The position numbers and the translations under genes were made by a program. Positions 23,147-56,731 of a stretch of 64,000 nucleotides of DNA are shown here, piece by piece (position 1 is the stretch's first letter; each line of letters begins with the position of its first letter). Source of the stretch: Desulfobacterales bacterium (GTDB lineage: Bacteria; Desulfobacterota; Desulfobacteria; Desulfobacterales; G020354645); NCBI GenBank assembly GCA_050053515.1, contig JASFTQ010000001.1, forward strand, positions 4-64,003, given 5' to 3'. Under the pieces are notes generated by a model, which worked only from the letters and a program-made list of their open reading frames with translations, was not told where the DNA came from and made no database searches.

Positions 23147-25654
23147 ATGGACAAAAGCCAACCCCCCGTGGTTAAACAATCGCTTTTTTCGTGGGTATTT
23201 TCGGTAAAAACCAATCTCCAGGTGCTGTTGGTTGTTGTCATTTTAGCTGCTGTGTTTGCCCGGGTTTTGCCTCTCGAGATGCAAAAGCGAGTGGTAAATG
23301 AGGCTATTAAACTGAAGAAAATAGACCTGTTATTTTTTTACTGCGGTGTTTACCTGGCAGCGGTAGTCAGCGCCAACGGACTCAAATACCTCATTAATAT
23401 TCTCCAGACGGTGATCGGCCAGAGGGTTGGTGCCGATATGCGAAAAGGGTTGTATCATCATATTCTGACCCTTCCCCTGAGTTTTTTTAGAAGGACCCAA
23501 CCCGGTATGGTCGTTTCATCACTGGTCAACGAACTGGCCACCGCCGGAGATTTTGTGGGGCAGGCCGTAGCAGTTCCCTTGAGCAATACGCTGACGCTGC
23601 TGGCCGTCACAGGATACCTGCTCTGGCTAAACCCGCTGTTGGCCGCCGTATCTTTTTCCATTTACCCGCTTGGACTATTTCTGGTGACGCGGCTTCAGAA
23701 ACGCGCCAACCGTGCAAACAGCCAACGGGTGGATCAAGCACGTCAGGTCAGCAGCAAGATAGCAGAGTCCGTGACCGGCATTCAAGAGATCCAGGCCCAC
23801 GGGGCTTATCGAATCGAAAACCGCAAGTTCGACACGTTGGTGGATCAACTGATGAAAACCAGGGTCCTTTGGAATTTGTACCGATTTGGTATCAAAGTGA
23901 GCAACAATGTCTCCACCAGTATCAGCCAGTTTCTCATTTTCATCATCGGTGGTTATCTGGCCATTAACGGTCGGCTGGAACTGGGGGCTTTGGTAGCATT
24001 TTTATCCGCCCAGGAAAAACTCTACGACCCCTGGAGGGAACTGGTTGATTTTTACCAGGATTACCAGGACGCTTCTGTCAGTTACTATCGAACGATGGAT
24101 TATTTCAACGTTCAACCCGAACACAAACTCGAACCCGAAGACAGGAACCCTTATGCACTGGATGGCAGCATCGAGGTCAAAGATTTGTCATTTGCGACGG
24201 AAACCGGCGTTAGGCTATTGGATGATATCAAATTCTCACTGAAGCCCGGCCAGCAATTGGGTCTTGTCGGGTTTTCCGGCAGCGGCAAAAGCACTCTGGC
24301 CCAGTGTGTCGGGCAGCTTTATAAATATACAGGCGGACAGATCCGGATCGGCAACCAGGAGGTATCGGGTTTGACCAAAAAGGATATTGCTTACAACCTT
24401 GGCTTTGTATCGCAAACACCCTTTATTTTCGATGGAACCTTTCAGGAAAATTTGCTTTATTCTGTTGCGGCTAAACTCGACGGCAACGGCTCTGCTGAGA
24501 TGCCCAGTCTGGATGATATGATCAATGTAATACAGCAAACGGGTCTTTTTACCGATGTCCTGCGGTTTGGCCTCAATACGGTTTTAGATGTTGAAAGATA
24601 TAAAAATCTTATACCTCATCTGATTCGGGTTCGGACAAAATTGAGCCGCAGGCTGAAAGTATCACTGGCCGACTATGTTGAGTTTTTCGATAAAGGAACC
24701 TATCTTTATTATTCCAGTGTAGCAAAGAATCTGACATTCGGATTTGCCACCGATCCGGCATTCGTTAAAGAAAGATTACCTGAAAATAGATTTTTTCTAA
24801 GCTATCTGGCGGAAAATGATTTGATACAGCCACTTCTGTTTCTTGGTGCCGAGCTTTGTAAAATAACCGTCGATATATTAACCCCCCTGGCACCGGATGA
24901 ATCATTGTTCGAGCAAAGTCCCATAACGGTCGATGAGATGAATGATTATCTAGCGGTCGCCGGGCGGATTAGAGGTTCCGACTTGGATCGGCTTGCTGAC
25001 CGGGAGCGGCAAATGCTTTTGAAACTGGCTTTGCGTTTCACACCGGGGCGGCATAAAATGGTTGCACTGCCTAAAAAATTAGAACAGAAAATACTGGAGG
25101 CACGGACTCAATTCAGAAAGAAAATTTCCGGTGAATATCCGGACACCTTCTCGTTTTATCGCAAGAGGGAATACATTTATTCACACACCATCCTAAATAA
25201 TATTTTTTTTGGAAGATTAAAAACAGAAAATCCCTCCTTATTTGATAAAATCAATCAACACATTATTCAAATTCTGATAGAAGAGGGCGTGCTGGAAGCT
25301 ATCGTCGAAATCGGTATGCAGTTTCAGGTGGGTAGCAAAGGAGATCGACTCTCGGGAGGTCAGCGCCAGAAACTGGCTATTGCCAGGGCCTTTTTAAAAA
25401 ATCCGCGAATTTTGATAATGGATGAAGCCACCGCCGCACTGGACAATAAGTCACAATCGCGCATTCAAAATATTCTGGACACCCACTGGAGGAAAAAGAG
25501 CACCCTGATAGCTGTCGCCCACCGCCTGGACATAGTCAAAGGCTACGATAAAATTGCAGTTATGAAGGCAGGTAAAATAGGTGAAATAGGTGCCTATGAC
25601 GAACTGCTCGCCCAAAGAGGCTTGTTATATGAACTTATCACGGGCGGTCGGTAA
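23147..25654 (+). CDS. fused ABC exporter (6-TM permease plus ATPase) with a large insertion inside the ATPase domain
   Basis: 835 aa. Walker A GFSGSGKST is encoded near 24271-24297 and the Q-loop VSQTPFIF near 24410. The signature LSGGQRQKLAIARAF appears only near 25349-25390, followed by Walker B ILIMDEATAALD. Confidence 0.85.
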   Translation: MDKSQPPVVKQSLFSWVFSVKTNLQVLLVVVILAAVFARVLPLEMQKRVVNEAIKLKKIDLLFFYCGVYLAAVVSANGLKYLINILQTVIGQRVGADMRKGLYHHILTLPLSFFRRTQPGMVVSSLVNELATAGDFVGQAVAVPLSNTLTLLAVTGYLLWLNPLLAAVSFSIYPLGLFLVTRLQKRANRANSQRVDQARQVSSKIAESVTGIQEIQAHGAYRIENRKFDTLVDQLMKTRVLWNLYRFGIKVSNNVSTSISQFLIFIIGGYLAINGRLELGALVAFLSAQEKLYDPWRELVDFYQDYQDASVSYYRTMDYFNVQPEHKLEPEDRNPYALDGSIEVKDLSFATETGVRLLDDIKFSLKPGQQLGLVGFSGSGKSTLAQCVGQLYKYTGGQIRIGNQEVSGLTKKDIAYNLGFVSQTPFIFDGTFQENLLYSVAAKLDGNGSAEMPSLDDMINVIQQTGLFTDVLRFGLNTVLDVERYKNLIPHLIRVRTKLSRRLKVSLADYVEFFDKGTYLYYSSVAKNLTFGFATDPAFVKERLPENRFFLSYLAENDLIQPLLFLGAELCKITVDILTPLAPDESLFEQSPITVDEMNDYLAVAGRIRGSDLDRLADRERQMLLKLALRFTPGRHKMVALPKKLEQKILEARTQFRKKISGEYPDTFSFYRKREYIYSHTILNNIFFGRLKTENPSLFDKINQHIIQILIEEGVLEAIVEIGMQFQVGSKGDRLSGGQRQKLAIARAFLKNPRILIMDEATAALDNKSQSRIQNILDTHWRKKSTLIAVAHRLDIVKGYDKIAVMKAGKIGEIGAYDELLAQRGLLYELITGGR

Positions 25655-30229: not shown

Positions 30230-31566
30230 CTACCCAGAGAGCTTTGGAAGTAAAAACGAAGCGAAGCTCAGAACGAAAAAAAACCGCACATATCGGTGAT
30301 TGTCGTCAGTAGGGGGCCGGATGCCAAAGCCGGGTCGGTTCTCATACCGCGTAAGATTAATGGAGCAAGTCCGCCAAAACTCACTGCAACCAGTGTATTG
30401 GCAGCCAGCGAGACGCTGACAACCAAACCCAGATAGGGATTACCTTTCCACAGCAATGCTGCCCCACCGAGTAGACATCCGAGCACAATGCCGTTTATGA
30501 TTCCAATTGAGGATTCTTTCGTTAAAACACGTATCAATTCGCGAGGCCGAACCAATCCCAGCGTCAACTCTCGAATGCTGACAGCCACCGCTTGATTGCC
30601 GGAACAGCCGCTCATATCCGATATGATGGGGAGAAAAACTGCAAGCACGATCGCCTTTTCCAGAGGGTCCTGATATAATGCGATTACACTGGCGGCAATG
30701 ATGTTGAGTACGATGTTGATGCTGAGCCATGAAAGCCGGCGTGAAGATCTTTTGAACAAAGGCATCGTTCTATGTTCTTCGCCACCCACGATACCGGCAA
30801 ATTTTAAAAACAACTGGTTGTTTTGCCGGTTGGCGGCCTCTCTGACCGAAACACTCCGAACGACACCCATAAGTACTCCGTCATCGCTGACAACTGGTAC
30901 CCCTAGAAAGGAATATTGTCGGAAAAAATCCTTTAAGTCGCTTAATGACGTTTTGACATTTACGTGGAGGGGTTTTTTGATCATAATCTCACTGATACTC
31001 TTGCTTCGGGGGGCCATCAGAAGATCCAGCAGCCGCAGGACTCCGATTAGCCGGGCTGAGCCGGAAACCACATATGCATACTGTGGATATCGTAATCCGA
31101 GTATGCCTCACCCTGGGCACGAAGATCATCCAACACATCTTTGACCAGCATATCCCCGCCGTAGGACAGATATTCGTTAATCATCAAAGCGCCGGCAGTG
31201 TTTTCAGGACAGCTCGTCAATTGCCGGATTTCTTTGGCCCTATTGGGTTTGATATCCTGCAATATCAACTCGGCATCGTCTTGCCTGAGTTTTCTGAGGA
31301 TACGGGCCTGCTGGCCGCTGCCCATTTCCCGAACAATCGGTACTGCATCTGAAGGGATTAAACGCTCGACGACGCCGGACGCGCCCAATCCTGATATTTT
31401 TGAAATGAGAGCAGCCGATCTTTCCGGTCCTATCAATTCAAGCCGGCGGGCTTGATCTTATTGATCTAGGCGGGTGATATAGGGCAATTTGTGCCGATGA
31501 TAATTTTTCGAGAAAGGCTATAATTTGCGGGCCGTTTCTCGTCTGAATCACATGATATAGGGTCAT
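30230..31566 (-). pseudogene. mgtE: magnesium transporter MgtE, disrupted by frameshifts and an in-frame stop
   Basis: MgtE homology is spread over at least three frames. The N-terminal piece from ATG 31566 ends at a TGA (31443-31441) and the homology continues in another frame, which contains an in-frame TAA near 31459-31461. The N-domain and first CBS part lie in ORF 31047-31436. The rest of the CBS pair plus the TM domain lie in ORF 30268-31071, with the frame change near 31075-31085 (..YSDYDIHS / YAYVVSGSARLIGVLRLLDLL). The C-terminus is cut at an A8 run (30276-30283). One extra base there would restore GFFFVLSFASFLLPKLSG*. Confidence 0.6.
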
Positions 31567-34001: not shown

Positions 34002-34016
34002 GCAATTGGCATGCCA
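34002..34016 (-). promoter_or_regulatory. sigma-54 (-24/-12) promoter match upstream of the mini-MAT / DUF47 / PiT operon
   Basis: The minus strand reads TGGCAT-GCCAA-TTGC with canonical GG-N10-GC spacing. It lies about 80 nt upstream of ATG 33923. Confidence 0.6.
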
Positions 34017-34275: not shown

Positions 34276-34291
34276 TGGCACGGGTATTGCT
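34276..34291 (+). promoter_or_regulatory. sigma-54 (-24/-12) promoter match upstream of the clpP-like gene
   Basis: The plus strand reads TGGCAC-GGGTA-TTGCT. It lies about 100 nt upstream of the GTG 34393 start. Confidence 0.6.
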
Positions 34292-34392
34292 CTCCATATA
34301 ATATAAGAGGATTGCTGTCGAACGAAAACCGGTATTTGGCGTCGTCATTAAAATCCGCAGTGAAAAATTACACAGGGTTTAAGGGGGTTGCC

Positions 34393-35010
34393 GTGGCCAT
34401 TATCATACCCATGATCATCGAACGAGACAGTCGTGGCGAGCGCGCTTATGATATATACTCCCGACTGCTGAAAGATCGGATTATTATTTTAGGGGCCGCC
34501 TTGAATGATGAGGTGGCCAATTTGCTCATCGCCCAACTGCTTTTTCTGGAATCCGAAGACCCGGATAAAGACATTAATTTTTATATCAATTCACCGGGTG
34601 GGTTGGTCACTTCAGGCCTGGCCGTGTATGACACGATGCAGTACATCAATCCTGACATCACTACGGTTTGCCTGGGGCAAGCCACCAGCATGGCGGCTTT
34701 TTTGCTGGCTGCCGGCACCAAGGGCAAACGCTATTCACTGCCGAATTCCAGGATATTAATCCGCCAACCGATGGGTTCATTTCGAGGACAGGCATCTGAT
34801 ATCGAAATTCACGCCAAGGAAATTATTCGAATGAAAGAGACCTTAAACCGTATCCTAGCCAGACACACCGACAGATCATATGAGCAAATTCAGGCGGATA
34901 CGGATCGGGACTATTATATGAGCAGCGAGGAAGCCAAGGTCTATGGTCTAATTGATTTTGTCATCAGAAATCGGAACGATCTCTTTCAGTTGCAGCAGAA
35001 AGCAGCCTAA
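34393..35010 (+). CDS. clpP: ClpP-family protease subunit with catalytic His replaced by Arg (ClpR-like)
   Basis: ClpP blocks are [41 protein letters not shown] and [14 protein letters not shown] (Ser present). The MIHQP motif reads LIRQP, with codon CGC at 34762-34764. The Asp region DTDRDYYMS is present. I chose GTG 34393, which follows AAGGGGG, because the track ATG at 34312 lies too close to the sigma-54 promoter and lacks an RBS. Confidence 0.8.
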
Positions 35011-35095: not shown

Positions 35096-36967
35096 ATGAT
35101 ACCCAGGAATTTGAAAGCGTATCTAAAGGAGCATCTTCCGGAAACCGCCATTAAAAACCGCACCATACGTGAAAAAGGGAGGTGTTTCATGGAATTCGGT
35201 TATATGGACGAACACCTTCTCTATCGCATGGGTATCAACCGTGACAGACTCGGTCCCAGACTGGTTGTCTGCATGTGGGATGAAAGCTCCCCTTTGGAAG
35301 TCGGTGGCTATCTGGTGGTGGATAATCTGGCCATGGGAAGCCCTGCCATGGGAGGAATCCGGATGCTCCCCGATATAACACCGGTTGATATTCATAATTT
35401 GGCACGGGGGATGACACTAAAAAACGCGGCAGCCGATCTGCCCTATGGGGGAGGCAAAGCCGGTATTGTGGCCGAACCCGGCACGTCTGCGGAGGAGCAC
35501 ACCGCCATTGTAAGGGATTTTGCCCACCTGATCGGCCGCTACCGAGATATCTATGTACCCGGTCCGGACGTCGGGACCAATGATGCCGACATGATGACAA
35601 TTGCCATACAAAATGGCATCGACAGTGCTGTGTCCAAACCCGCCGCCATGGGTGGCAACCGCATTGATGAATTAGGGGCGGCAGCCGGCGGTTTAATTGT
35701 TGCGCTCGAGAGACTGTTGGAAATTATGCCGCGATTGACCGTATTGCCCCAGTTTGCCCAATTGAAGGTACCTTCCCCGGAAGAACTGACGGTCATCATA
35801 CAGGGGTTTGGGGCCGTTGGAGCGCATACGGCAAAGTATTTGACCGAAAGGTTCCCCCGGGCAAAAGTAACCGGTATCAGCGATCTTCAGGGTTATCTCT
35901 ATGACACTGCGGGCTTGCCGGTGGATAAACTCTTCAGTCTGGCAAAGCAGCGGGGTTTGGTCACGCGCCGCTACTATGAGGAAGAGATTGCGTCAAAAGA
36001 TTACCGCCATCCCACCAAATTTTCTACGGACACCAACAAACTACTCAGAGAATCGGCGTTTTGTTTCATACCGGCCTCACCTGTCTTTAATTACCTGGGC
36101 GTGCTTCCCACAGAGTCATGTTCAATGAGCATAGATCAAATGGGAAGATGGTCGGTAATTATTGAGGGTGCCAATACCTACTCACCGGATCCGAACCGTA
36201 AGGCCGCTCGCACCCGCATGGAGCAGGCCGTCTATCGTCGAAAAGGGGTGATGATTGCCAATGACTATTTGGTTAACTCGGGTGGTGTCATATTTGCCGC
36301 CCAGGAACACATTATCCCAACGCCCGTGCATCTTCAAATTCCCGATGAAATACGCGGCAACCCGACCGCTGTGGAGGCCTGGCTTTTCGGAAAGGAAACA
36401 GAGTTCGCTGAAATATCTGAAAAACGATTAAACGCCGGGATTGAATACAGGGAAAACTCGATTCGGCACAATATGACGGAGTTGGTCGACCTGCTGGCTT
36501 CCAACCCGGACTTGCTGCCCGGTCAGGCTGCAGAACGTATCGGCATTCAGCGGCTCACCGAAAAAGAAAGTGAACGCACCGCCAAAGGTATTATGGAACC
36601 GATACCCACCATCAGCATTAAAGCCAGTCTACAGGAAGCCGCGTCTCTGATCGTAGAATCCCAAAGCAACATCGTTGCCGTGCTTACGCAAGATGGCAAA
36701 CTTGCGGGAGTTCTGACTCCCTGGGATATCACCCGGGCCATTTCCGAAGGGGTTTGTGAAGAAAGTGTCGAAAAAATTATGACCGTTAAAGTGATTTCGG
36801 CAGATCCTTCCTGCAGTATCCTGGATGTCGTGACTGACCTGGAACAGAACAAAATTTCGGCGATGCCGGTGGTAGAAGACGGGATCGTTTTGGGAATGGT
36901 CAGCTCCGATTTGTTGGCTCAGCAGTATCTGTTGCGGCTGCTGCGGCCGCAGGCAAAGAGCTCATAA
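35096..36967 (+). CDS. Glu/Leu/Phe/Val dehydrogenase-family enzyme fused to a C-terminal CBS pair
   Basis: The GDH core is present (GGIRMLPDITPVDIHNLARGMTLKNAAADLPYGGGKAGI and the Rossmann segment IQGFGAVGAHTA). Two C-terminal CBS-like segments follow (IVAVLTQDGKLAGVLTPWDI and ISAMPVVEDGIVLGMVSSDLL). The chosen start is ATG 35096, preceded by AGGAG. Confidence 0.8.
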   Translation: MIPRNLKAYLKEHLPETAIKNRTIREKGRCFMEFGYMDEHLLYRMGINRDRLGPRLVVCMWDESSPLEVGGYLVVDNLAMGSPAMGGIRMLPDITPVDIHNLARGMTLKNAAADLPYGGGKAGIVAEPGTSAEEHTAIVRDFAHLIGRYRDIYVPGPDVGTNDADMMTIAIQNGIDSAVSKPAAMGGNRIDELGAAAGGLIVALERLLEIMPRLTVLPQFAQLKVPSPEELTVIIQGFGAVGAHTAKYLTERFPRAKVTGISDLQGYLYDTAGLPVDKLFSLAKQRGLVTRRYYEEEIASKDYRHPTKFSTDTNKLLRESAFCFIPASPVFNYLGVLPTESCSMSIDQMGRWSVIIEGANTYSPDPNRKAARTRMEQAVYRRKGVMIANDYLVNSGGVIFAAQEHIIPTPVHLQIPDEIRGNPTAVEAWLFGKETEFAEISEKRLNAGIEYRENSIRHNMTELVDLLASNPDLLPGQAAERIGIQRLTEKESERTAKGIMEPIPTISIKASLQEAASLIVESQSNIVAVLTQDGKLAGVLTPWDITRAISEGVCEESVEKIMTVKVISADPSCSILDVVTDLEQNKISAMPVVEDGIVLGMVSSDLLAQQYLLRLLRPQAKSS

Positions 36968-38975: not shown

Positions 38976-41402
38976 ATGATTGGATTTATGCAACCAGAAT
39001 ATCTTAAAAAAAGCCTGGCAGAAATACCAAAAGACCTTTCTATCTTACCCCTGCGAAATATCGTTGCCTTTCCTTTCATGATGCTGCCTTTGTCGGTTGG
39101 AATTCCGCGGTCGGTTAGACTGATCGAAGATGCATTAAAAGGCGATCATTTGATCGGACTTCTGGCCAGCAAAGACGGATCGATTGACGAACCGGTGCCG
39201 GGCCAGATTTACGAAATCGGGACAGTGGCGAAATTGCACCATGCCGTACGAAGCCATGAAGAACATATGCACGTCGTGGTTGAAGGGCTAGAGCGCTTTC
39301 GGTTGAAGCACTGGCTGACCACCGAACCTTATCTCCAAGCCTCTATTGATCTTTCTCCAGATATCGTTGAGCCAGGGATTGAACTGGATGCCTTGATGCA
39401 CAGCTTGCGTGATTTAGCCAAGCAAATTATTACTCTCTTGCCGAATTTACCGGAAGATGTCGGCAATTTCCTTGATCAAGTAGAAGAACCACGATACCTT
39501 ATTTACATGGTTGCAGCCAATTCACGGCTCAATATGAAAACCAATCAGCGGCTATTAGAAATGGATCATCTCAAGGATAAATATCAAGCATTAATCTATC
39601 AACTAACGCGACAGAAAGAAGTATTAACTCTTGGCCGCAAGATTCAAACCGAAGTTCGAGAAAAAATGAGCAAGGCTCAACGGGAATACTACCTGCGCGA
39701 ACAACTCAAGGCCATTAAAAAAGAACTTGGCGAAACGGATGATATTGAATCTGAAGCCGTCGAATATGCCGTAAAAATTGAAAAAACGGATATGTCCGAA
39801 GAAGCCAGGAAAGAGGCGCAGCGAGAATTAAAACGGATGAAAGGGATGGCTCCGCAAGCAGCAGAATATGCGGTGATTAAAACCTATCTGGACTGGCTGC
39901 TGGAACTTCCTTGGAATGTGACCAGCCAGGATCAGTTGGATGTCAACGACGCCCGCAGTGTGCTGGATGAAGATCATTATGATTTGCAGGACGTCAAAAA
40001 TCGAATCATTGAATATCTTGCGGTACGCAAGCTGGTCTGCGAACGTGAGGAAGAATTTAAGCCTGAAACCTGTGTCTTCGACGACAAGGCCATGGGTGCT
40101 ATTCTCTGTTTCGTCGGACCCCCCGGTGTCGGCAAGACCAGCCTGGGGCAAAGTATTGCCAGAGCTCTGGGGCGAAAATTTACCCGCATGAGCCTGGGCG
40201 GCATGCGAGATGAAGCCGAAATTCGGGGACATCGCCGCACCTATATCGGGGCCATGCCGGGCCGTATCATCCAGGCGATCAAGCGAGCAGGCACCCGCAA
40301 TCCGGTCTTCATGCTGGATGAAGTGGACAAAATCGGAACAGATTGGCGTGGAGATCCTAGCAGCGCACTGCTGGAGGTCCTTGATCCCGCCCAAAACCAT
40401 GCTTTTCGCGATCACTACCTGGATGTAGACTTTGATCTGAGTGATGTGATGTTTATTACCACGGCCAACCAACTTGAGACCATTCCACCACCCTTGCGTG
40501 ACCGAATGGAAATTATTCATCTGGAAGGATATACAGAGTATGAGAAGATCCATATTGCCAAGAATTTTCTGGTGCCCCGGCAGCTTAAAGCAAATGGGCT
40601 GCGCAAAGAAGAAGCAATATTCACCACAGACGCTTTGCGAAAAATTATACAAAGTTACACCCGGGAGGCCGGGGTGCGAACCCTGGAGCGCCAGATTGGG
40701 ACAGTTTGTCGTAAAGTTGTTGTAAAAATTGCCGCCGGGGAATCAATTCATGAAGAAGTTACACCGACCGCCGTGCGAGGATATCTCAAAAAAGAAAAAT
40801 TCGAATCCGAAGCTTCCGAGATAATCGACACTCCGGGGATTGCCACTGGCCTAGCGGTAACGGCTACCGGTGGTGACATTTTATTTATCGAAGCCACCCG
40901 CATGCCGGGTAAAGGCAAGCTGACTTTAACCGGTCAACTGGGCGACGTCATGCGTGAAAGTGCTCAAATTGCCCACAGCTACGTGCGGTCAAAGACTGCT
41001 CAGTTGGAAATTAATTCAGAAGATTTCGAAAAAAATGATGTGCATTTGCATGTGCCGGCCGGCGCCATTCCTAAAGACGGCCCCTCGGCAGGCATTGCAA
41101 TGGTAACCGCCATCGCAAGCCTATTCAGTGGGAAACCCGTACATGGCGATGTCGGTATGACCGGCGAAGTAACATTACGGGGCCGAGTGCTGTCGGTCGG
41201 TGGTATTAAAATGAAGGTTCTGGCTGCCCATCGCGCCGGAATTACCACTGTGGTCCTGCCCAGAAAAAACGAACCTGATCTGGAGGAATTACCGGAAGAT
41301 GTGCGTAACGACATAAACTTTATTCCTATCGAGCAAATCGATGAAGCCCTGAAAGTGGCACTGGCCGCTGACAGGTTAAATGAAAAAAACAAGAAGAGTT
41401 AA
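38976..41402 (+). CDS. lon: ATP-dependent protease La (Lon)
   Basis: 808 aa. It has the LON N-domain, Walker A GPPGVGKTS, Walker B FMLDEVDK and the catalytic PKDGPSAGIAM ... GGIKMKVLAAHRAG region. Confidence 0.95.
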   Translation: MIGFMQPEYLKKSLAEIPKDLSILPLRNIVAFPFMMLPLSVGIPRSVRLIEDALKGDHLIGLLASKDGSIDEPVPGQIYEIGTVAKLHHAVRSHEEHMHVVVEGLERFRLKHWLTTEPYLQASIDLSPDIVEPGIELDALMHSLRDLAKQIITLLPNLPEDVGNFLDQVEEPRYLIYMVAANSRLNMKTNQRLLEMDHLKDKYQALIYQLTRQKEVLTLGRKIQTEVREKMSKAQREYYLREQLKAIKKELGETDDIESEAVEYAVKIEKTDMSEEARKEAQRELKRMKGMAPQAAEYAVIKTYLDWLLELPWNVTSQDQLDVNDARSVLDEDHYDLQDVKNRIIEYLAVRKLVCEREEEFKPETCVFDDKAMGAILCFVGPPGVGKTSLGQSIARALGRKFTRMSLGGMRDEAEIRGHRRTYIGAMPGRIIQAIKRAGTRNPVFMLDEVDKIGTDWRGDPSSALLEVLDPAQNHAFRDHYLDVDFDLSDVMFITTANQLETIPPPLRDRMEIIHLEGYTEYEKIHIAKNFLVPRQLKANGLRKEEAIFTTDALRKIIQSYTREAGVRTLERQIGTVCRKVVVKIAAGESIHEEVTPTAVRGYLKKEKFESEASEIIDTPGIATGLAVTATGGDILFIEATRMPGKGKLTLTGQLGDVMRESAQIAHSYVRSKTAQLEINSEDFEKNDVHLHVPAGAIPKDGPSAGIAMVTAIASLFSGKPVHGDVGMTGEVTLRGRVLSVGGIKMKVLAAHRAGITTVVLPRKNEPDLEELPEDVRNDINFIPIEQIDEALKVALAADRLNEKNKKS

Positions 41403-42150: not shown

Positions 42151-43542
42151 TCAGGGTTTGAAGATCTCTTTGCGAATTGCGTATTTTAACATCAACTTAT
42201 TTAGTTGACGGGTCGTAATGCCGGCTTCATCAGCAGAGACTTTTACCTTTCCTCGGTTTCTCGAAAGAAGCTCCTTAAGATACTGTCTTTCAAATTCTTC
42301 GACCGCTTGTTTTCTGGCTTCAGCAAGTGTTGTATCCGGGTGAATCGGTAATATGGCGCTTTCGGGATCTTTTTTGAATAGCTCCTCGGGAAAGTTTTCA
42401 GGTGTTAATGCCGGTGTAGATTCAAGCAGGTAAGCTCTTTCCATAAGGTTTTCGAGCTCACGAATGTTACCGGGCCACATATATTTCTCAAGGGCTGCAG
42501 TAACGGTCGGATGTATTCGATTGATTTTTTTGCCGTACGTACCGTCAAGCCTTTTCAAAATCGTGTTCATCAGAAAGGGAATGTCATCCTTGCGCTCCCT
42601 TAATGAAGGTAGCTCGATGGGCAATACATTCAGCCGGTAATAAAGATCCTTTCTGAAGGTTCCGTCTTCCCTCTTCTGTTGGAGATCGGCGTTGGTGGCG
42701 GCAATAATCCTGGCATCGGTTTTAAAAGTTTCTTCACCGCCCACGGGGCTGAAAGTTCCATCCTGTAAAACCTGCAGCAGTTTTATTTGTGATCCCGGTG
42801 AAATGGTGCCGACTTCATCTAAAAAGATCGTTCCGCCTTTGGCGATTTCAAACTTTCCGAGTTTTTTGCGATGGGCACCGGTAAATGCTCCTTTTTCGTG
42901 GCCGAACAGTTCGCTCTCCAGGAGGGTATCTGGGATGGCGCCGCAATGGACACTTATAAAGGGGGCATCACGCCGGTGGCTGTGAATGTGGATTAATCGC
43001 GCCAAAACGCCCTTGCCGGTTCCTGTTTCACCACTGAGCAGGATAGTGGCTTTGGTTGCCGCCACTGCGCGGATTTTTTCATAAACCATCCGCATGGCAG
43101 CACTTTCGGTGTGAATCGTATCCAGTGCATCAGGTCGCCAGAACTTATCTCTTAAATAGTCGAGCTCCAGGTTTTTTATGACGGTTTTTTCGGCAGACGC
43201 TGCAACTAAACAGACTTCTTCAGCATTGAGGGGAAGGAGAACGTAATCGCTGGCGCCGGCTTTCAAAATCTTGACTGTTTTTCGTATCCACTTCGCCGGT
43301 GTCACCAGAATAAGTTCCACGCTGGGGTATAGATTGACGAAAGGCTCCAGAGCTTCCTGATAATCCTCGGATTCAGAAAAAAGATCGATGTCTATAAATG
43401 CTAGCGCGTGATCTCTGGCCCTAAGTATATTGACCGCCGCTTCCCGGTTATCGGCATTATCGACGGTGTATTCCGAGCCCAGTGCGGAAATGATTTGTTT
43501 GCTGTGTTCTTCAACAGAGGAGACGACTAGAACAGACCGCAT
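42151..43542 (-). CDS. sigma-54-dependent transcriptional activator (NtrC family) with an atypical receiver domain
   Basis: 463 aa. It has an N-terminal REC-like domain, an AAA+ domain with GETGTGKG, GAFTGA and Walker B TIFLDEVG, and a C-terminal Fis-type HTH (AGITTRQLNKLMLKY). Confidence 0.9.
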   Translation of the reverse strand: MRSVLVVSSVEEHSKQIISALGSEYTVDNADNREAAVNILRARDHALAFIDIDLFSESEDYQEALEPFVNLYPSVELILVTPAKWIRKTVKILKAGASDYVLLPLNAEEVCLVAASAEKTVIKNLELDYLRDKFWRPDALDTIHTESAAMRMVYEKIRAVAATKATILLSGETGTGKGVLARLIHIHSHRRDAPFISVHCGAIPDTLLESELFGHEKGAFTGAHRKKLGKFEIAKGGTIFLDEVGTISPGSQIKLLQVLQDGTFSPVGGEETFKTDARIIAATNADLQQKREDGTFRKDLYYRLNVLPIELPSLRERKDDIPFLMNTILKRLDGTYGKKINRIHPTVTAALEKYMWPGNIRELENLMERAYLLESTPALTPENFPEELFKKDPESAILPIHPDTTLAEARKQAVEEFERQYLKELLSRNRGKVKVSADEAGITTRQLNKLMLKYAIRKEIFKP

Positions 43543-44921: not shown

Positions 44922-45078
44922 ACCAATTAATTTCAACAAACTTGTCACAAAATAGTAAATATACACGCTGCGCTAATGTTGGAAGTAGTGGATTAATTGA
45001 TAATTAAAACAACCCTATTACTCTAACTATTGGCGCAGCGAAATCTTATCTTAAGAATCTTATCTCAAGGAGAAGAAA

Positions 45079-45591
45079 TTGAATAGAATCCGCATTTATC
45101 TCCCGTGTATATTTTTAGCAATGATTTTCGGATCTGAAACTGTCGTAATTGGTCAAGGACCTGCTGAAAAAATGTGTATCCCGAAAATTATTATAATTCA
45201 GCCCCCTGAAACGGTAGAGGCCAAAAGAAATTCAGTTGAATTTCCACATACCAGTCACTTCAAATTCCCCTGCAGAAAGTGTCACCATACATGGAAAGGG
45301 GATGCTGCCATCGTTAATTGTACAACCTCCGGTTGTCATGATGTGACCGTTTCGCCCATTAAGTCTAAAAAGAAAGGCTCAAAGAAAGTAAAAGCGATGA
45401 GGTACTATAAGACAGCTTACCATACCCTGTGTATAGGATGCCATCGAGATATTAAACTTAAAAACAAAGCACTGGAGGAGTCAAATCGGAAACTAATTTA
45501 CAAACTGCGTTATCCCGGGCGGAAACCAACTTACAAACTGCAGTATCACGGCCCCACCAGCTGTAGTAGGTGTCATCCGAAGGAAAAATAA
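45079..45591 (+). CDS. tetraheme cytochrome c3 family protein
   Basis: 170 aa with a signal peptide. The heme sites are CRKCH, CTTSGCH (CX4CH), CIGCH and CSRCH. It has a TTG start preceded by AAGGAG. Confidence 0.8.
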   Translation: MNRIRIYLPCIFLAMIFGSETVVIGQGPAEKMCIPKIIIIQPPETVEAKRNSVEFPHTSHFKFPCRKCHHTWKGDAAIVNCTTSGCHDVTVSPIKSKKKGSKKVKAMRYYKTAYHTLCIGCHRDIKLKNKALEESNRKLIYKLRYPGRKPTYKLQYHGPTSCSRCHPKEK

Positions 45592-45627
45592 TTCGTGAAA
45601 GGGAGAAGCAAAAGTGAGGTGATAATA

Positions 45628-46566
45628 ATGCAGCCCCGAGATCAAAAGACGTTGCTGGTGGCAATGGACGTATCCGAGCGAAGTAAAAACACTGTTAAGC
45701 AGTTGGCTAGAATCGATCGCTTCCGAGAATACAAGATTGTTTTATTTCATGTTTTCAATCCAATACAGGAAATTTATTGGGATCTAGAAATAGATCCTAA
45801 GGCGATTGTGTCTGAGAAAGACATTTTTGCTTGGGAAGCTGAGAAGGAAAAGAAGACGACCGATTTCATGGAACAGGCACAAAACCTTCTTGTACGCAGC
45901 GGGTTTAATAAGGATTTCTTAGCGGTAAAAATTCAGCCACGTTTAAAAGGAGCCGCTAGAGATTTCATCGCTGAAGCTCGGCGAGGATACCATGTTTCGG
46001 CAATTCGACGACGCGGAATGTTACAAGACACATCCGGCATCGTGGGGAGTGTATTCAGCAAACTTGTTGAAGCGATCTCTTTTGTTCCTTTGCTAATTAT
46101 CGGCAAGCAACCTTTTTCCGGTAATATTATCATCGGGATTGATGGTTCTGAAAACGCTTTGCGAGCAGTTGATTTCGTAGGCGAGTTACTGGGGGGATCT
46201 GACTGCAGGGTGCATTTATTAAGTGTTGTGCGCAGGATTCAAGGTTTCGGACAGAAGCAACATCAGTGGCAGACGCTAAGTAAAATGATTGAGCCCTTTT
46301 TCAAAAGAAAACTGACGGCATCGCTTGAGGAATCCAAAAAACGGTTAATGGTAGCTGGATTTACCAGTGAACAGCTATCCGCCAAGGTCATCACAGGCGA
46401 GGACAGTCGTGCCGGCTGCCTTGTTCAGGAAGCCGAAAGGTTTGGCTGTGATACCATTGCGCTGGGAAGAAAAGGCTTATCGCAAGTAATGGATTTCTCC
46501 ATGGGAGGTGTGACGAGAAAGGTTATCCAACTGGCCCAAGATAAAAGCATCTGGGTGATAAATTAA
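45628..46566 (+). CDS. universal stress protein with tandem USP domains
   Basis: It has two USP domains, and the second carries the ATP motif LGRKGLSQVMDFSMGGVTRKV. I prefer ATG 45628, preceded by GAGGTG, over the track GTG at 45595. Confidence 0.85.
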   Translation: MQPRDQKTLLVAMDVSERSKNTVKQLARIDRFREYKIVLFHVFNPIQEIYWDLEIDPKAIVSEKDIFAWEAEKEKKTTDFMEQAQNLLVRSGFNKDFLAVKIQPRLKGAARDFIAEARRGYHVSAIRRRGMLQDTSGIVGSVFSKLVEAISFVPLLIIGKQPFSGNIIIGIDGSENALRAVDFVGELLGGSDCRVHLLSVVRRIQGFGQKQHQWQTLSKMIEPFFKRKLTASLEESKKRLMVAGFTSEQLSAKVITGEDSRAGCLVQEAERFGCDTIALGRKGLSQVMDFSMGGVTRKVIQLAQDKSIWVIN

Positions 46567-46705
46567 TGCCGCAAAAAAGCAAGCTTTGGAATGAATTCAA
46601 CAACGGCTTCAGGTTCTGTAAATCGGGATCGGATGTTCCGGCAGGGTGTCTTTGAATTCTATAAAAAACTAAATAACAAATATTTACAGTCCATTAATTA
46701 CAGTT

Positions 46706-46721
46706 TGGCACGCTAGTTGCT
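46706..46721 (+). promoter_or_regulatory. sigma-54 (-24/-12) promoter match upstream of the YeiH-family gene
   Basis: The plus strand reads TGGCAC-GCTAG-TTGCT, about 72 nt upstream of ATG 46792. Confidence 0.65.
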
Positions 46722-46791
46722 TTTAATTAATGGGGGCGTTTTTTAATTCTTAACCCTAAAAAATACTTTTAACATCACGGAGGGTGGACAT

Positions 46792-48147
46792 ATGAGTAAC
46801 GAAACCAAAACACGCCAAATAGTCTTTTGGAAAAGTGAGGATTGGTGGGCCTGTTATCTGGGGTGGTTTATTTTACTGCTGGCCATCATCGGGTTAAAAG
46901 AAATTGAAGCCGGCAAATGGGTGGTCCAATTGTTGCCCGAAGGTCCCAAAATCGGCAAGAATTGGACATCTCTGGCAGCCATATTCCCCAAAGGCTGGGC
47001 GACCGTCTGGGCGGCTGTCGGCATGTTCATATTTATGGCTGTCATTACATCCATCGGCGGTTTAGTTATGAAACTGGACCTGAAACGTTACCTGCCGGGC
47101 TTCCTCGTCATTTTCGCTCTGGCTTACGTGGCATTGATCCTATCGAATCAGAAATTCTTCAACAAATGGGGAATAGAATACGTGATTTTTGCACTGGCTT
47201 TCGGACTGCTTATTAGCAACCTTTTTAAAGTGCCGGAAATTCTGAAAGTCGGCGGACGCACCGAATATTTCATCAAAATTGGCCTGGTGTGTATGGGAGC
47301 GGATATCTTTTTTGGTGATATTATCCGGGGCGGTTTCATCGGCCTGGTCCAGGCGGTGCTCGTCGCTTCCAGCGTTTGGTTTATGACCTATTGGATTTGC
47401 CGCAAATTCATGGTTTCCGAGCGTTTCAGCGCCATTATTGCCTCGGCCAACGCAATTTGCGGAGTGTCCGCCACTATTGCCGCCGGCGGTGCGATCCAGG
47501 GCGACAAGAAGGAAATCAGCTATATGATTGCCTGGGTGCTGGTCTGTGCGGTGGTGCTGATTCTGATCATGCCGCCGATTGCCAAATGGATGAATCTGCC
47601 CAACAATTGGGCCGGTGCCTGGGTCGGCGGGGTGATCGACAATACCGGTGCGGTAGTGGCGGCCGGGGGAATTATCGGGGGTGATGCCGCCTACAAAACG
47701 GCTGCATTGGTTAAAATGTCCCAGAACGTGCTCATCGGTTTAGCGGCCTTTTTAATCGCCCTGTGGGCCACCATGAGCCTGGATCGCAAGGAGACCCCAA
47801 CAGCGGAAAGGCCTTCCTTTATGGAAATTTGGTACCGCTTCCCGAAATTCGTGCTGGGGTTTGTGGTAGCCTCCCTGATAGTCTCTTTTATCGCCGAACC
47901 GGTGTGGGGCGAGAAGGTGGCCAAGCTAGTTGGCAATGCCTGTAAGACTTACCGCAACTGGTTTTTTGCGCTTTGCTTTGTCTCCATCGGACTCGAGACC
48001 AACTTCAAGGAGCTGGTATCCGTCGGCGGGGGAAGACCGGCGATTGCTTACTGGATTTCCCAAACCGCCAATGCCGTCTGGACTCTGTTCATCACCTGGA
48101 TTCTGTGGTCCGGCACGTTCTTTACCCCAGCCATTCCTGCGGACTGA
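46792..48147 (+). CDS. YeiH/UPF0324-family membrane protein (putative sulfate-exporter family) with an N-terminal extension
   Basis: 451 aa and collinear with E. coli YeiH as I recall it. Corresponding blocks are FGLLISN, YFIKIGLVCMG, NAICGVSATIAAGGAI, GGVIDNTGAVVAAGG, FPKFVLGFVVASL and FALCFVSIGLETNFKEL. Confidence 0.7.
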   Translation: MSNETKTRQIVFWKSEDWWACYLGWFILLLAIIGLKEIEAGKWVVQLLPEGPKIGKNWTSLAAIFPKGWATVWAAVGMFIFMAVITSIGGLVMKLDLKRYLPGFLVIFALAYVALILSNQKFFNKWGIEYVIFALAFGLLISNLFKVPEILKVGGRTEYFIKIGLVCMGADIFFGDIIRGGFIGLVQAVLVASSVWFMTYWICRKFMVSERFSAIIASANAICGVSATIAAGGAIQGDKKEISYMIAWVLVCAVVLILIMPPIAKWMNLPNNWAGAWVGGVIDNTGAVVAAGGIIGGDAAYKTAALVKMSQNVLIGLAAFLIALWATMSLDRKETPTAERPSFMEIWYRFPKFVLGFVVASLIVSFIAEPVWGEKVAKLVGNACKTYRNWFFALCFVSIGLETNFKELVSVGGGRPAIAYWISQTANAVWTLFITWILWSGTFFTPAIPAD

Positions 48148-48217
48148 TAGCTGACCTACCACAGGGGAGACGTTCCATTGCGAACGTCTCCCCCAATTTT
48201 ATACGAAATAGATAATT

Positions 48218-48432
48218 CAGGGGCCGGGGTATTTTTTTCACGGCAAGATGCCGGGTTGTTGCCTGCCAAGCCTGACAGCGGCAACTGCCTTGCATTTTAC
48301 TGCTAACTATTTAAAACTTTCACACCAACAAGAACCGACACCGGGTTTTGCCTTTCTCGGCGGCAATAGCCCTCTGCCCCTTTGAAGCACAGGGGCGATC
48401 ATCTTGTCGTGAAAAAAACACCCCGACCCCTC
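48218..48432. mobile_element. MITE-like element, family A, copy 2
   Basis: It is a full-length counterpart of 8664-8877 in the opposite orientation and lies between convergent genes. The flanks (GATAATT / AAATATT) are AT-rich but not an exact duplication. Confidence 0.7.
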
Positions 48433-48442
48433 AAATATTCTG

Positions 48443-49390
48443 TTATGTTGTCGCGCTAAAATGCTTTTTCGAAAAGGCGACTCGCTCCTCAATCGCCGTC
48501 AGGTTATGGTGATGCTGTTCAACCAGCTTTAGACGCGGCAGCAATCCTGATCGGTTGGCGATTTGAATATTGAGACCCGGACGGGCGTTCAGCTCCAAAA
48601 TTAACGGCCCTTTATCTTTGTCCAGCACAAGATCAACACCGATGTATCCCAGACCAATCAGCTCATAACAACGGGATGCAATATGAAGCAGTGTATCCCA
48701 GCTCGCAATTTGAACACCGGTAACAGGGTTTCCGGTATCCGGGTGCTCGGTAACAATATTATCTCGCCACACCGCGGTTAGGGTTGTTCCGGTAGTGATA
48801 TCAATTCCGGCGCCAAGCGCCCCCTGGTGTAAGTTGGCTTTGCCGCCGGACATGCGGGTTGGCAGCCGTACCATGGACATCACCGGCACCCCCAGAAAAA
48901 CGATCACCCGAATATCCGGCACTCCCTGATAACTGATGGCTTCGAATACGGGATCAAATTGCACCCGATATTCGATCAAGACTTTATCCGGCTGCCCGCC
49001 TAAACTATAGATACCGCTGATGATATTAAACAGATGATAGGCGACTTCTTCAGGGTTCAACAGTGTACCGTCGACTTTGCGATACATATTCTTGGAGCAT
49101 CCGGAGATGACCAAAATGCCTTCCCCGCCTGAACCTCTGGATGGCTTTATGGCAAATTCCGAATAAGATTTCAGCAACGCCTCGATATGCCGAACCTGAT
49201 ATTCCGTCTCCACCACTTCATAAAGCTCCGGTACGGCAATACCGGCTTTCAAGGCAATTTTTTTGGTCTGCAGCTTGTCATCCACAAGCGGAAATAAGCG
49301 GCGCGGATTGTAGCGCAGGGTATATTCGGCGTTGCGGCGGTTGATGCCCAGCACACCCATTTCGGCGATGCGTTTCTTTATCCTAAACAT
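48443..49390 (-). CDS. alpha-L-glutamate ligase-related ATP-grasp protein (RimK-related)
   Basis: 315 aa with ATP-grasp blocks (FAIKPSRGSGGEGILV ... ILELNARPGLNIQIANR). It overlaps the upstream 7TM gene by 8 nt. Confidence 0.75.
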   Translation of the reverse strand: MFRIKKRIAEMGVLGINRRNAEYTLRYNPRRLFPLVDDKLQTKKIALKAGIAVPELYEVVETEYQVRHIEALLKSYSEFAIKPSRGSGGEGILVISGCSKNMYRKVDGTLLNPEEVAYHLFNIISGIYSLGGQPDKVLIEYRVQFDPVFEAISYQGVPDIRVIVFLGVPVMSMVRLPTRMSGGKANLHQGALGAGIDITTGTTLTAVWRDNIVTEHPDTGNPVTGVQIASWDTLLHIASRCYELIGLGYIGVDLVLDKDKGPLILELNARPGLNIQIANRSGLLPRLKLVEQHHHNLTAIEERVAFSKKHFSATT

Positions 49391-50918
49391 CGGATTTTAT
49401 CTCGGTTAAAGCCTTAAAACGGCGAAGTTCCATTAACCTGAAACCGGAATAGCGTCCCAGCAATATGGTTGCGGCAAGCAATATCAGAAGCAATTCGGGA
49501 AATACAAACACCAGATGTTCAACCAATTTAATGCTCATTATCAGATAGGCGATCACTGCTGCGACAATTGATCCGACCCCCTGTTTGATGGTTTCAAAAG
49601 CCCCCAGCTCATCCCATACGATGGACATCCGTTCGATGGTCATGGTTAAAATGACCATGGGAAACAGCGCCACGGAGAGCCCTCGCTCAAGCCCGAGTTT
49701 GTTTGTCAGCACACTGAGAAATGCCATCAAACCGATCACGACAATTAATATTGCCGCTAATCGCGGTACCACCAGTAATTTCAAATGGTCAAAGTATAAA
49801 CGAATCAGCAGCCCGATGCCGACCACCGTGGAAAATAAAAAAACACCCCACAGCAGCCGGGTCTCTCTAAATGAAAGGGCAATCAAAACCGGCATAAACG
49901 TGCCGAATGTCCGGATACCGATAACATTGCGAAGAATAACCAGAAACAAAACACCGACGGGAACCAGCAATGCCACTCGATATACGGCCTGGGTTTTGGC
50001 TGGCAGGCTGAACAGGGAGAAATCCAGCAAAAACGGCTTTTTGATGATGCCCTTTTCAACCGCCAGCTGCAGAGCGGCTTCCTCACCGCGCACAACCGAT
50101 AACGATACCCGCAGATTTTTTACTCCTAGGGCCTGCACCAGCGGTTCCACGCCTTTCCACCATGCCAGATAGTCTTCAGGCACGTCACGCTCTCCCGAAA
50201 GCGGTTCGTAGGAAATCCAGCGGTTCTTATCATAAACCTCCAGCCAGTGTATAATGGGAGCCTCTCTTCGTTGCGCTTCCAACCGCAGGCCGTGTACAGC
50301 ACGGGCGTGGATGCCGGCCAGGGCCAGCAATTGAACGGCAAGGTCGACCTTCTTTTGAACCGTCGCTTTTTTACCTAAAAACAAGGCGACATTATCCCCC
50401 GGTTGCGAAGCGTTCAGCTGTTTTAATAATGCTGCCACCAGACTGTCCGTATCTGCCGACTTTTCACGGACATCGAATAGGATCGCCCGGGATGCCTCGC
50501 GATAGGCACCGCTAAAATCAGGTTGGCTCGGTTCGGCTTTGACCGGCTGGGTTGATTTGATATCTCGATCTACCCGATATACCGATGCCTTATAAAACAG
50601 GGTTTGCGATCCTCGGGCCTTGCGAATCGACCAGATGACCTTGCGCTTTCCTTCCTCGGTGGAAACGTCAACCCCGTACCCGCGGGATATGAAATTTTCG
50701 TTCACGATAGTAAAACGCTTCGAAGTGCGCGGGATGCGCATGGCAACCTTTACAGGTGTGTCACCGGCCTCGAATGTGAGGTGAGCCTCGATGTCCCAAA
50801 CATAGGTCAGGGTCTCAGGGATCAGGGGGAAATCTAAGACCAGGATTTTATATAAAAAAAGCGCAAGGCCCACGGCAGTTAAAAATCCCGATAAAAAATA
50901 CAAGTGGCGCTTGTTCAT
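49383..50918 (-). CDS. inactive-transglutaminase-like periplasmic domain fused to a 7-TM module
   Basis: 511 aa. An N-terminal TM is followed by a soluble region of about 270 aa and then about seven closely packed TM helices. This architecture co-occurs with RimK-related ligases. Confidence 0.65.
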   Translation of the reverse strand: MNKRHLYFLSGFLTAVGLALFLYKILVLDFPLIPETLTYVWDIEAHLTFEAGDTPVKVAMRIPRTSKRFTIVNENFISRGYGVDVSTEEGKRKVIWSIRKARGSQTLFYKASVYRVDRDIKSTQPVKAEPSQPDFSGAYREASRAILFDVREKSADTDSLVAALLKQLNASQPGDNVALFLGKKATVQKKVDLAVQLLALAGIHARAVHGLRLEAQRREAPIIHWLEVYDKNRWISYEPLSGERDVPEDYLAWWKGVEPLVQALGVKNLRVSLSVVRGEEAALQLAVEKGIIKKPFLLDFSLFSLPAKTQAVYRVALLVPVGVLFLVILRNVIGIRTFGTFMPVLIALSFRETRLLWGVFLFSTVVGIGLLIRLYFDHLKLLVVPRLAAILIVVIGLMAFLSVLTNKLGLERGLSVALFPMVILTMTIERMSIVWDELGAFETIKQGVGSIVAAVIAYLIMSIKLVEHLVFVFPELLLILLAATILLGRYSGFRLMELRRFKALTEIKSDV

Positions 50919-51436: not shown

Positions 51437-51538
51437 TTCCTCATGCCGTTTCCGGCTACCTGTGCGGCTGATTCCCGATGGGTTTCCCCCCTGACTTCAA
51501 TGGTTTCCGTGACCACCCCAAAGGCTTCGGGATCAATT

Positions 51539-53830: not shown

Positions 53831-53957
53831 GAGATCAGACTCTTTTCTACGGGTTCTATAAGTTTTTTATCGTAGCCTACATTGAGCGTTTTTTTTCCGG
53901 CCATTGCGAGCAACCGATCCAGTCGGTGGCGAGGCAATCCCAAAAGCCGGGTCGAGT

Positions 53958-56573: not shown

Positions 56574-56597
56574 TGTTGTAACCTCCTGAAAAGTAGC

Positions 56598-56731
56598 TAA
56601 ACCTGTTTTTCCAGTTCGCGAATGCTGGCTTCCAGCTCCTCGATGCGGTCCAACAGGTCCAGGACCTCACCGATGCCGGAATAATTGATGCCCAGGTCAT
56701 TTCGAAGTCTTAAAATTCTTTCACTATTTGA
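56598..56731 (-). pseudogene. relic of a MerR-type heat-shock regulator / chaperone modulator (HspR/CbpM/DafA-like), C-terminal part only
   Basis: This open frame has no start codon. It translates to [44 protein letters not shown] and ends 24 nt before the clpB ATG. The pattern RL..DLG.N..G......LLDR...L resembles C-termini of HspR/CbpM-type proteins, which in several bacteria sit directly upstream of clpB. I could find no HTH-encoding 5' part. Confidence 0.4.

Follow-up and report, generated by a model that had tools for sequence, protein, structure and literature searches.

A ClpP paralogue with arginine at the catalytic histidine position in a Desulfobacterales bacterium: a candidate for a newly non-catalytic Clp subunit

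What role might be left to a ClpP subunit that has kept its nucleophile and its assembly surfaces but has lost the histidine of its catalytic triad? The question is raised by a 64,000-nucleotide stretch of DNA (the window) from a Desulfobacterales bacterium (GenBank assembly GCA_050053515.1, contig JASFTQ010000001.1). At 34393-35010 on the + strand it carries a clpP paralogue, written here clpP(Arg), which starts with GTG and encodes 205 residues with the triad Ser99-Arg124-Asp173. A first-pass annotation had described a ClpP with a Ser-Arg-Asp triad, its arginine codon one base from CAC, under a sigma-54 promoter, without clpX or clpA nearby and followed by a dehydrogenase-CBS fusion gene; it had gone on to suggest a ClpR-like regulatory subunit. 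The description of the locus has stood up throughout, whilst the suggestion survives as the likeliest reading of function but not as to family. The best reading of clpP(Arg), to which we give a probability of roughly 0.55, is that it encodes a newly non-catalytic, still-maintained, ClpR-like modulator subunit.

The open reading frame (ORF) scores above the family cutoffs of both PF00574 (278.8 bits; cutoff 20.2) and TIGR00493 (316.1; cutoff 308.6), and its product, about 69% identical to solved ClpPs, has the ClpP fold beyond question. Since residues 4-197 align without a gap to these solved ClpPs, the best match being Francisella ClpP (5g1q/3p2l), Arg124 falls in the column of the catalytic histidine. 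Its codon, CGC (34762-34764, +), is a single A-to-G transition away from the CAC of the orthologues. The other two members of the Ser-His-Asp triad are in place: the nucleophile Ser99 (codon AGC, 34687-34689, +) in the motif GQATSMAAF, and Asp173 (codon GAC, 34909-34911, +) in DTDRDYYMS, within the Asp-Arg-Asp motif that serves as a ring-ring sensor. Histidine occupies the catalytic column in 118 of the 120 closest homologues and in 147 of the 148 diverse ClpP cluster representatives in which the column is aligned. The residues that form the hydrophobic pocket for the IGF/LGF loops of the unfoldases, the N-terminal gate, the oxyanion hole and the Asp-Arg-Asp ring sensor are, at the level of sequence, those of canonical Desulfobacterales ClpP, with one exception, a conservative V-to-I change in the N-terminal loop. 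The GTG at 34393 and its ribosome-binding site (RBS), AAGGGGG, line up with the starts of the orthologues, so the protein should begin where mature E. coli ClpP does, with no propeptide or autoprocessing. The E. coli ClpP sequence served for numbering only.

The arginine is genuine and fixed in the lineage, being shared by independent assemblies of three runs and by a protein of 92% identity. CAC was sought as the true codon, and the contigs from all three runs read CGC: an independent Logan assembly of run X1 contains an identical 10-kb contig (depth 8.6), run X2, from a different sample, yields a 316-bp contig across the codon with 0 differences, and run X6, a 2023 metagenome holding a diverged strain, yields a 250-bp contig whose 6 differences leave the codon unaffected. 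The 92% identical protein (P0002), from a separate JGI metagenome, likewise reads LIRQP. This check rests on assembled contigs, so rare histidine alleles may exist. The window strain also has Thr98 directly before the nucleophile, where the X6 strain, P0002 and 99% of homologues have alanine.

The phylogenetic position of clpP(Arg) bears on the age of the change. Its close homologues fall into two groups, marked by the motifs HQPMGxFRGQA (group A) and HQPMGGFQGQA (group B). Group B is the housekeeping ClpP: at the 80 loci found in related reference genomes, to which the window species itself does not belong, the catalytic residue is histidine in all 80 and an ORF with the ClpX signature lies directly downstream in 78. 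The clpP-clpX pair was found in 80 of 80 such genomes, most with lon next. Group A is a monophyletic, Desulfobacterales-specific clade of 39 sequences, the window protein included, in which clpX is never the next gene. In the tree P0002 is the terminal sister of the window protein (P0001), and the pair is nested within group A. All 37 other members have histidine, encoded by CAC in each of the three orthologues for which DNA is available (L001, L002 and L176), and the arginine therefore stems from one recent A-to-G transition within a lineage of species or genus rank. It does not characterise an ancient ClpR-like family. To the annotation's question of whether orthologues also carry arginine, the answer is thus yes for P0002 and the X6 variant and no for the remainder of group A. 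Only seven positions, with mostly conservative changes, systematically separate group A from group B, and group A is therefore a recent duplicate with full ClpP machinery. It is also rare, a pattern scan having matched a single locus (L176) among 185,579 species representatives. Membership of the ClpR family, or the status of an old dedicated regulatory paralogue, must be rejected for clpP(Arg): its product shares 77-80% identity with ordinary Desulfobacterales ClpP, it is nested among histidine-bearing ClpPs of that order, and against NF009204, which we take to be a cyanobacterial ClpR-type model, it scores 199.7, under the cutoff of 263.

Arginine in the histidine column is not confined to this lineage. 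In an alphaproteobacterial-type clade (P0294, P0393-P0401 and P0403; loci L280-L282), 8 of the 11 members carry it, the others having histidine, serine or glutamine. These are orphan genes of 240-325 residues with C-terminal extensions and 69-91% mutual identity. Arginine is present in both basal branches of this clade and is its ancestral state; the aspartate is kept in all members, whilst the serine has become alanine, aspartate or glycine in four. With a mean identity of 76%, against 86%, the clade has evolved at a higher rate than canonical alphaproteobacterial ClpP. A scan of reference genomes for an Arg/Ser-QP motif retrieved 42 ClpP-like genes. An Asn-Arg-Asp clade (GQARNIAA...NILLRQPM) comprises 15 species of SAR324, Lambdaproteobacteria, 'Deltaproteobacteria' metagenome-assembled genomes and uncultured Pseudomonadota (loci L283, L304, L307, L311-L316, L318, L321, L328, L329, L339 and L341). 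Here clpX directly follows the gene at all 14 loci with enough flanking sequence, the gene taking the place of canonical clpP, and no second clpP was seen within these 8-kb loci. An Ala-Arg-Asp clade consists of orphan genes in 13 species of Melainabacteria/Obscuribacterales (loci within L288-L338). The scan also returned a clpX-linked Asp-Ser-Asp homologue from 12 Coleofasciculus-type cyanobacteria (L285, L286, L289, L291, L308, L323, L325, L333-L335, L337 and L342), and Gly-Arg-Asp or Gly-Arg-Ile proteins from two cyanobacteria, of which one (L298, Gly-Arg-Ile) passes NF009204.

The tree places at least four independent origins of arginine in this column. The aspartate is retained in 38 of 39 arginine-bearing sequences and the serine is usually lost: some members of every older arginine clade, and all members of the Asn-Arg-Asp and Ala-Arg-Asp clades, lack it. 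Arginine at this position is thus a recurrent feature of ClpP-like proteins in which catalysis has been given up. The motif scan found no Ser-Arg-Asp protein in the reference genomes, and the state seen in the window therefore looks transitional.

How might such a subunit act? The change from CAC to CGC in a group-A paralogue replaced the catalytic histidine, whilst all else that a ClpP subunit requires is unchanged. The product is most likely peptidase-dead, because arginine cannot act as a general base. Sigma-54 and an enhancer-binding activator protein would switch on the operon, and the arginine subunit would then be made. We infer that it may co-assemble with housekeeping ClpP; it might otherwise stack as rings on housekeeping ClpP, or bind and titrate its unfoldases. 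The Clp complexes would then have fewer and re-patterned active sites, which would make the subunit a conditional brake or tuner of Clp proteolysis, as with ClpR in cyanobacteria and plastids, where ClpP3/R cores offer the parallel. Such a role would also resemble that of 'rheostat' argued for P. aeruginosa ClpP2 (PMC13056064, PMC12451819). The near-universal retention of the aspartate alongside arginine suggests an ion pair between Arg124 and Asp173, which could keep the active-site and handle region assembly-competent and coupled to the ring-ring contacts. A possible but more tentative extension is that the window protein marks the first step of a recurrent route from ClpP to a non-catalytic scaffold or modulator, in which arginine pairs with the aspartate and the serine drifts later. 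If that were true, ClpR-like subunits would have four or more separate bacterial origins, one of them in the clpX-adjacent Asn-Arg-Asp clade, and would be no speciality of cyanobacteria and plastids.

The main rival to a maintained, non-catalytic subunit is a rather unlikely but serious one, namely that clpP(Arg) is a young loss-of-function allele: the sigma-54 operon would be becoming dispensable, and H124R would be the first hit in a redundant paralogue. The apparent constraint on the gene would then reflect short time, or selection only against a misfolded or poisonous subunit. A number of observations favour this rival and weigh against the reading preferred here. The arginine clade is very shallow (at least 92% amino-acid identity), leaving little time for visible decay, and arginine is confined to it, the 37 other group-A members all having histidine. 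The route from histidine to arginine by a CAC-to-CGC transition is the commonest one-step mutational route. The locus around clpP(Arg) is decaying, having lost the patatin gene that precedes clpP in relatives and containing a truncated SAM synthetase gene and a frameshifted mgtE. Substitutions are in excess at columns that are otherwise invariant. Of the differences between P0001 and P0002, 40% fall at columns conserved in at least 90% of sequences, compared with 8.5% in histidine-bearing pairs of equal divergence, of which only 2% reach 40%; departures from columns that are at least 97% invariant number 7 in P0001 and 5 in P0002, against a mean of 0.57. The changes common to the arginine pair at columns 97-100% invariant are V8I, F32I, K86N, H124R and D195N, to which the window strain adds Q11R, A98T, Q140H and G160D. 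All three non-synonymous changes that separate the window strain from the X6 strain hit columns at least 90% conserved, two of them at least 96%, and one is A98T, adjoining the nucleophile. Constraint on clpP(Arg) is thus measurably, if partly, relaxed. Furthermore, no RNA runs containing clpP(Arg) were found, the catalytic inactivity of a Ser-Arg-Asp ClpP is deduced from sequence, and a canonical clpP in the same genome is presumed.

Against a simple loss of function stands the evidence that the gene has been held under selection since the arginine arose. Between the window and the X6 strain, both with CGC, there are 9 synonymous and 3 non-synonymous differences, a ratio of non-synonymous to synonymous polymorphism (pN/pS) of 0.10 that departs from neutrality (binomial p = 2e-4); this estimate comes from 12 differences in two contigs of depth 2, and codon-level rates within the arginine lineage are drawn from these strain differences alone. 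The corresponding synonymous to non-synonymous counts in intact neighbouring genes are 12:4 (PhoU-like), 4:0 (PHO4) and 9:9 (the dehydrogenase-CBS fusion), so that constraint on clpP(Arg) is comparable to or better than that on its intact neighbours. Between P0001 and P0002 there are 15 residue differences, and the window, X6 and P0002 variants are all free of indels and stops. The 40% of the P0001-P0002 differences that lie at conserved columns, although high beside histidine-bearing pairs, is well under the 76% expected if the gene were neutral (p = 0.003). Over the longer term the ratio of non-synonymous to synonymous rates (dN/dS) is 0.07-0.17, as against 0.07-0.10 among histidine-bearing orthologues, and a relative-rate test gave no significant acceleration in the arginine lineage. 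The same locus provides its own contrast: the genes that truly were dispensable are visibly broken, with patatin deleted, SAM synthetase internally deleted and mgtE frameshifted, whereas clpP(Arg), its RBS, its promoter and all the assembly surfaces of its product are intact. In other clades the arginine state has been stably kept down to 63-69% identity. Partial relaxation together with preserved architecture is what would be expected of a subunit that has lost catalysis whilst its assembly is still selected.

An improbable alternative to a non-catalytic modulator is that clpP(Arg) encodes a working peptidase, in which Arg124, polarised by Asp173, serves as the general base, or which is active only when complexed with a different ClpP. 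In its favour, the protein keeps Ser99, Asp173 and the residues of the oxyanion hole, and clan-SK peptidases with a base other than histidine do exist, for example SppA with its Ser-Lys dyad. However, the pKa of the guanidinium group makes arginine a poor general base, and the near-universal presence of histidine in the 148 diverse and 120 close ClpPs argues in the same direction. In the older arginine clades, moreover, some or all members have lost the serine, which argues that catalysis is no longer selected once arginine is in place. The heterocomplex version has a precedent in ClpP paralogues that are active solely in such complexes (PMC12451819).

It is still less probable that clpP(Arg) is the sole ClpP of its genome, an orthologue that has moved away from clpX in a lineage without Clp proteolysis. 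In favour of this, none of the attempts made tied a canonical clpP-clpX locus to the window genome (a search of run X1 for one gave more than 100 fragments from many organisms, linkable to no one genome), and the divide between groups A and B amounts to only seven diagnostic positions. On the other side, group A is monophyletic with a synteny of its own (patatin upstream, sigma-54, never clpX), clpP-clpX is universal among the 80 related genomes, and a housekeeping protease under a sigma-54 stress-type promoter alone would be unusual. The Lon of the window (38976-41402, +) is instructive here. It passes the Lon equivalog model, but shares only 46-47% identity with any clpX-linked Lon of the related genomes, whereas within the Desulfobacterales those Lons share 73-88% among themselves. 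The window Lon is therefore an extra, divergent paralogue, as clpP(Arg) seems to be. This extra Lon and the 80 relatives indirectly suggest that the genome carries its housekeeping clpP-clpX-lon cluster at another site. Finally, a sequencing or assembly artefact at 34763 is practically negligible, given CGC in the independent assemblies X1, X2 and X6 and arginine in P0002 from a different metagenome, all as contigs.

Where does clpP(Arg) stand among known atypical ClpPs, if it is indeed a non-catalytic subunit? It would be an independently arisen and very young case of a known type, the non-catalytic ClpP paralogue. That such homologues co-assemble with active ones is established (PMC6508832, PMC7966870), and atypical paralogues have been described as protease 'rheostats' (PMC13056064, PMC12451819). 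The ClpR proteins of cyanobacteria, plastids and apicoplasts are ClpP homologues that lack catalytic residues and take a place in rings of the ClpP type, where they modulate the protease (PMC6508832, PMC7966870). The product of clpP(Arg) is likewise a homologue short of a catalytic residue and, judged by its sequence, would suit the same role, and at least one cyanobacterial protein that passes NF009204 (the Gly-Arg-Ile protein of L298) shares its arginine in the histidine column. ClpR is described as being without the catalytic triad (PMC7966870), whereas clpP(Arg) has lost histidine only and keeps serine and aspartate. ClpR is also ancient and deeply diverged, plant ClpP and ClpR subunits being mutually 24-48% identical (PMC6508832), whereas the origin of clpP(Arg) is separate and recent, with 77-80% identity to the ClpP of its own order.

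The second ClpP of Pseudomonas aeruginosa, ClpP2, offers a different parallel. Like clpP(Arg), it is encoded by a gene unlinked to clpX; that gene is a second, conditionally expressed clpP, as clpP(Arg) probably is, and the protein is thought to tune ClpXP through heterocomplexes with ClpP1 (PMC12451819, PMC13056064). Its triad is complete, however, and it is active in the heterocomplex, whereas clpP(Arg) lacks the histidine; and it is a diverged paralogue, whereas clpP(Arg) is near-identical to canonical ClpP on its functional surfaces. Canonical ClpP itself (Francisella 5g1q/3p2l; E. coli 1tyf) shares with clpP(Arg) its fold, length, functional surfaces and a pass of TIGR00493; clpP(Arg) differs in its arginine, in having no clpX beside it and in its sigma-54 promoter, which in relatives serves a patatin gene as well. 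In Listeria monocytogenes, ClpP1 has an incomplete triad, with asparagine for the aspartate, and regains activity in a heterocomplex. The change in clpP(Arg) differs from this in that it removes the general base itself. The Listeria isoform nonetheless works within a ClpP1/ClpP2 heterocomplex (PMC9257651), as clpP(Arg) may in a mixed complex.

The other clades with arginine in the histidine column (the alphaproteobacterial, Asn-Arg-Asp and Ala-Arg-Asp clades) share with clpP(Arg) that arginine and the retained aspartate. The alphaproteobacterial and melainabacterial genes are also orphans, as clpP(Arg) is, whereas the Asn-Arg-Asp genes are directly upstream of clpX. All are older and broader than the lineage of the window (reaching 63-69% identity in the Asn-Arg-Asp and alphaproteobacterial clades), and have mostly lost the serine; at 51-61% identity, none is a close relation of the window gene.

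Non-catalytic ClpP-like subunits are mainly known from cyanobacteria, plastids and apicoplasts, where their great age obscures their origin. In clpP(Arg) the event is caught early, as a single histidine-to-arginine change in an otherwise unaltered paralogue, with histidine-bearing sister lineages as natural controls. This makes two questions testable: what a dead subunit does to the Clp protease, and why it is arginine that replaces histidine. The change recurs across a number of unrelated phyla, and in some cases it affects the gene linked to clpX. This suggests that mixed active and inactive Clp cores are more widespread in bacteria than annotation shows, since all these proteins are labelled simply ClpP.

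The setting of the gene is also unusual for a ClpP. An exact match to the sigma-54 (-24/-12) consensus TGGCACG-N4-TTGC, TGGCACGGGTATTGC, lies at 34276-34290 on the + strand, 102 nucleotides (nt) before the clpP start. With up to one mismatch allowed, the window holds 5 such sites where 1.2 would be expected, a count that none of 100 shuffles attains. The same promoter sequence precedes patatin-clpP in L002, and TGGCATAGGTATTGC precedes it in L176. A candidate activator, a sigma-54-dependent response regulator (enhancer-binding protein) recognised by an NCBIfam match, is encoded at 42151-43542 (-), and its orthologues (57% identity) lie near clpP or dehydrogenase-CBS loci in L176, L273, L276 and L279. 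Consensus, distance, conservation in L002 and L176 and a nearby activator gene all agree, and the promoter of clpP appears real and conserved. A divergent sigma-54-like site with one mismatch, TGGCATGCCAATTGC (34002-34016, -), faces the SAM-synthetase remnant; it is kept as TGGCATACCAATTGC in L002 and L176 and as TGGCATATCAATTGC in L001.

In L001, L002 and L176 the gene immediately upstream of clpP encodes a patatin-like lipase, which is RssA-like and gives weak hits to generic phospholipases. There is no match to this patatin anywhere in the window. The leader of clpP(Arg) (34291-34392, +) consists of about 35 nt of ancestral 5' leader and about 30 nt that include the clpP RBS, with local alignments to L002 4900-4956 and 5982-6020. 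In the window a patatin ORF of about 1 kb was cleanly deleted between promoter and clpP. The pairing of patatin with a protease could be read as a defence system, but PADLOC matched neither ClpP nor the dehydrogenase-CBS fusion, and that reading was set aside.

Two neighbours on the other strand are damaged. The archaeal-type SAM synthetase gene (PF01941; 33303-33923, -) survives as an in-frame fusion of residues 1-41 and 232-403, about 190 residues having been deleted, as tblastn with the intact 403-residue L002 orthologue shows; the Pfam match covers only profile positions 247-395 of 395, and a zero-difference X2 contig spans the deletion junction. The mgtE pseudogene (30233-31478, -) lies in three frames, with two frameshifts, when compared by tblastn with the intact 457-residue orthologue of L001. 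Its split gene calls are the same in the independent Logan assembly L003, and a zero-difference X2 contig covers 31053-31270. The N-terminal part of mgtE is 51% identical to the L001 orthologue, compared with 84% for the rest.

Downstream of clpP(Arg), at 35096-36967 (+), is an intact gene for a 623-residue fusion of a Glu/Leu/Phe/Val dehydrogenase with CBS domains (GDH-CBS), identified by Pfam and carrying the GGGKA catalytic-lysine and GFGAVG Rossmann motifs. The 85-nt gap between the two genes contains no terminator-like site on the + strand, the gene order clpP-GDH-CBS recurs in L001, and GDH-CBS is probably co-transcribed with clpP. As an obligate partner of clpP it was rejected and the pairing is circumstantial: the family, with 2930 hits, is mostly found without clpP, the upstream position being usually taken by Usp, DUF2179 or small ORFs. 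A single-sequence search of the reference genomes for GDH-CBS loci gave one distant match. Members of the family (P0123-P0242; L273-L279) are about 622 residues long and come from sources that name Desulfobacterales as the taxon. Most have GGGKA, and their genes usually lie near those for a sigma-54 response regulator, Usp, MgtE, ClpB and LapA-domain proteins. On the true GDH equivalog models GDH-CBS scores 95 bits, against cutoffs of 620-750.

In the 64-kb window, clpP(Arg) is the sole ClpP-like gene, and no clpX or clpA was found, tblastn with a real ClpX returning only weak AAA similarity inside Lon. Other proteases and chaperones are encoded in the window. A LonC/LonB-like protease (AAA_32, LonC_helical and Lon_C) is found at 5364-7823 (-). 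An 871-residue AAA+ protein was considered as a hidden ClpA or ClpC partner and rejected; it passes the ClpB equivalog (TIGR03346, 1377 bits; cutoff 1232) and fails the ClpA model. It shares 93% identity with the ClpB of L276, a locus at which many ion and stress genes cluster with the GDH-CBS gene. In the window, genes for ion homeostasis and stress are unusually concentrated at 8900-31500 and 45000-56600. They include three MscS-type channels, CorA, MgtE, two CNNM proteins, a Na/Ca exchanger, an SLC12-type transporter and PhoU/PHO4, together with Usp, ClpB and a GAF-PtsP-like protein. An 835-residue ABC exporter (23147-25654, +) matches MsbA-type models over residues 13-446 and again over about 667-830, and so should have an insertion of about 220 residues between its transmembrane and ATP-binding parts. 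A second exact sigma-54 consensus, TGGCACGCTAGTTGC (46706-46720, +), lies 72 nt upstream of a Cons_hypoth698 gene (46792-48147). In L001 a Cons_hypoth698 gene, with its own sigma-54 site, is found immediately upstream of patatin-clpP.

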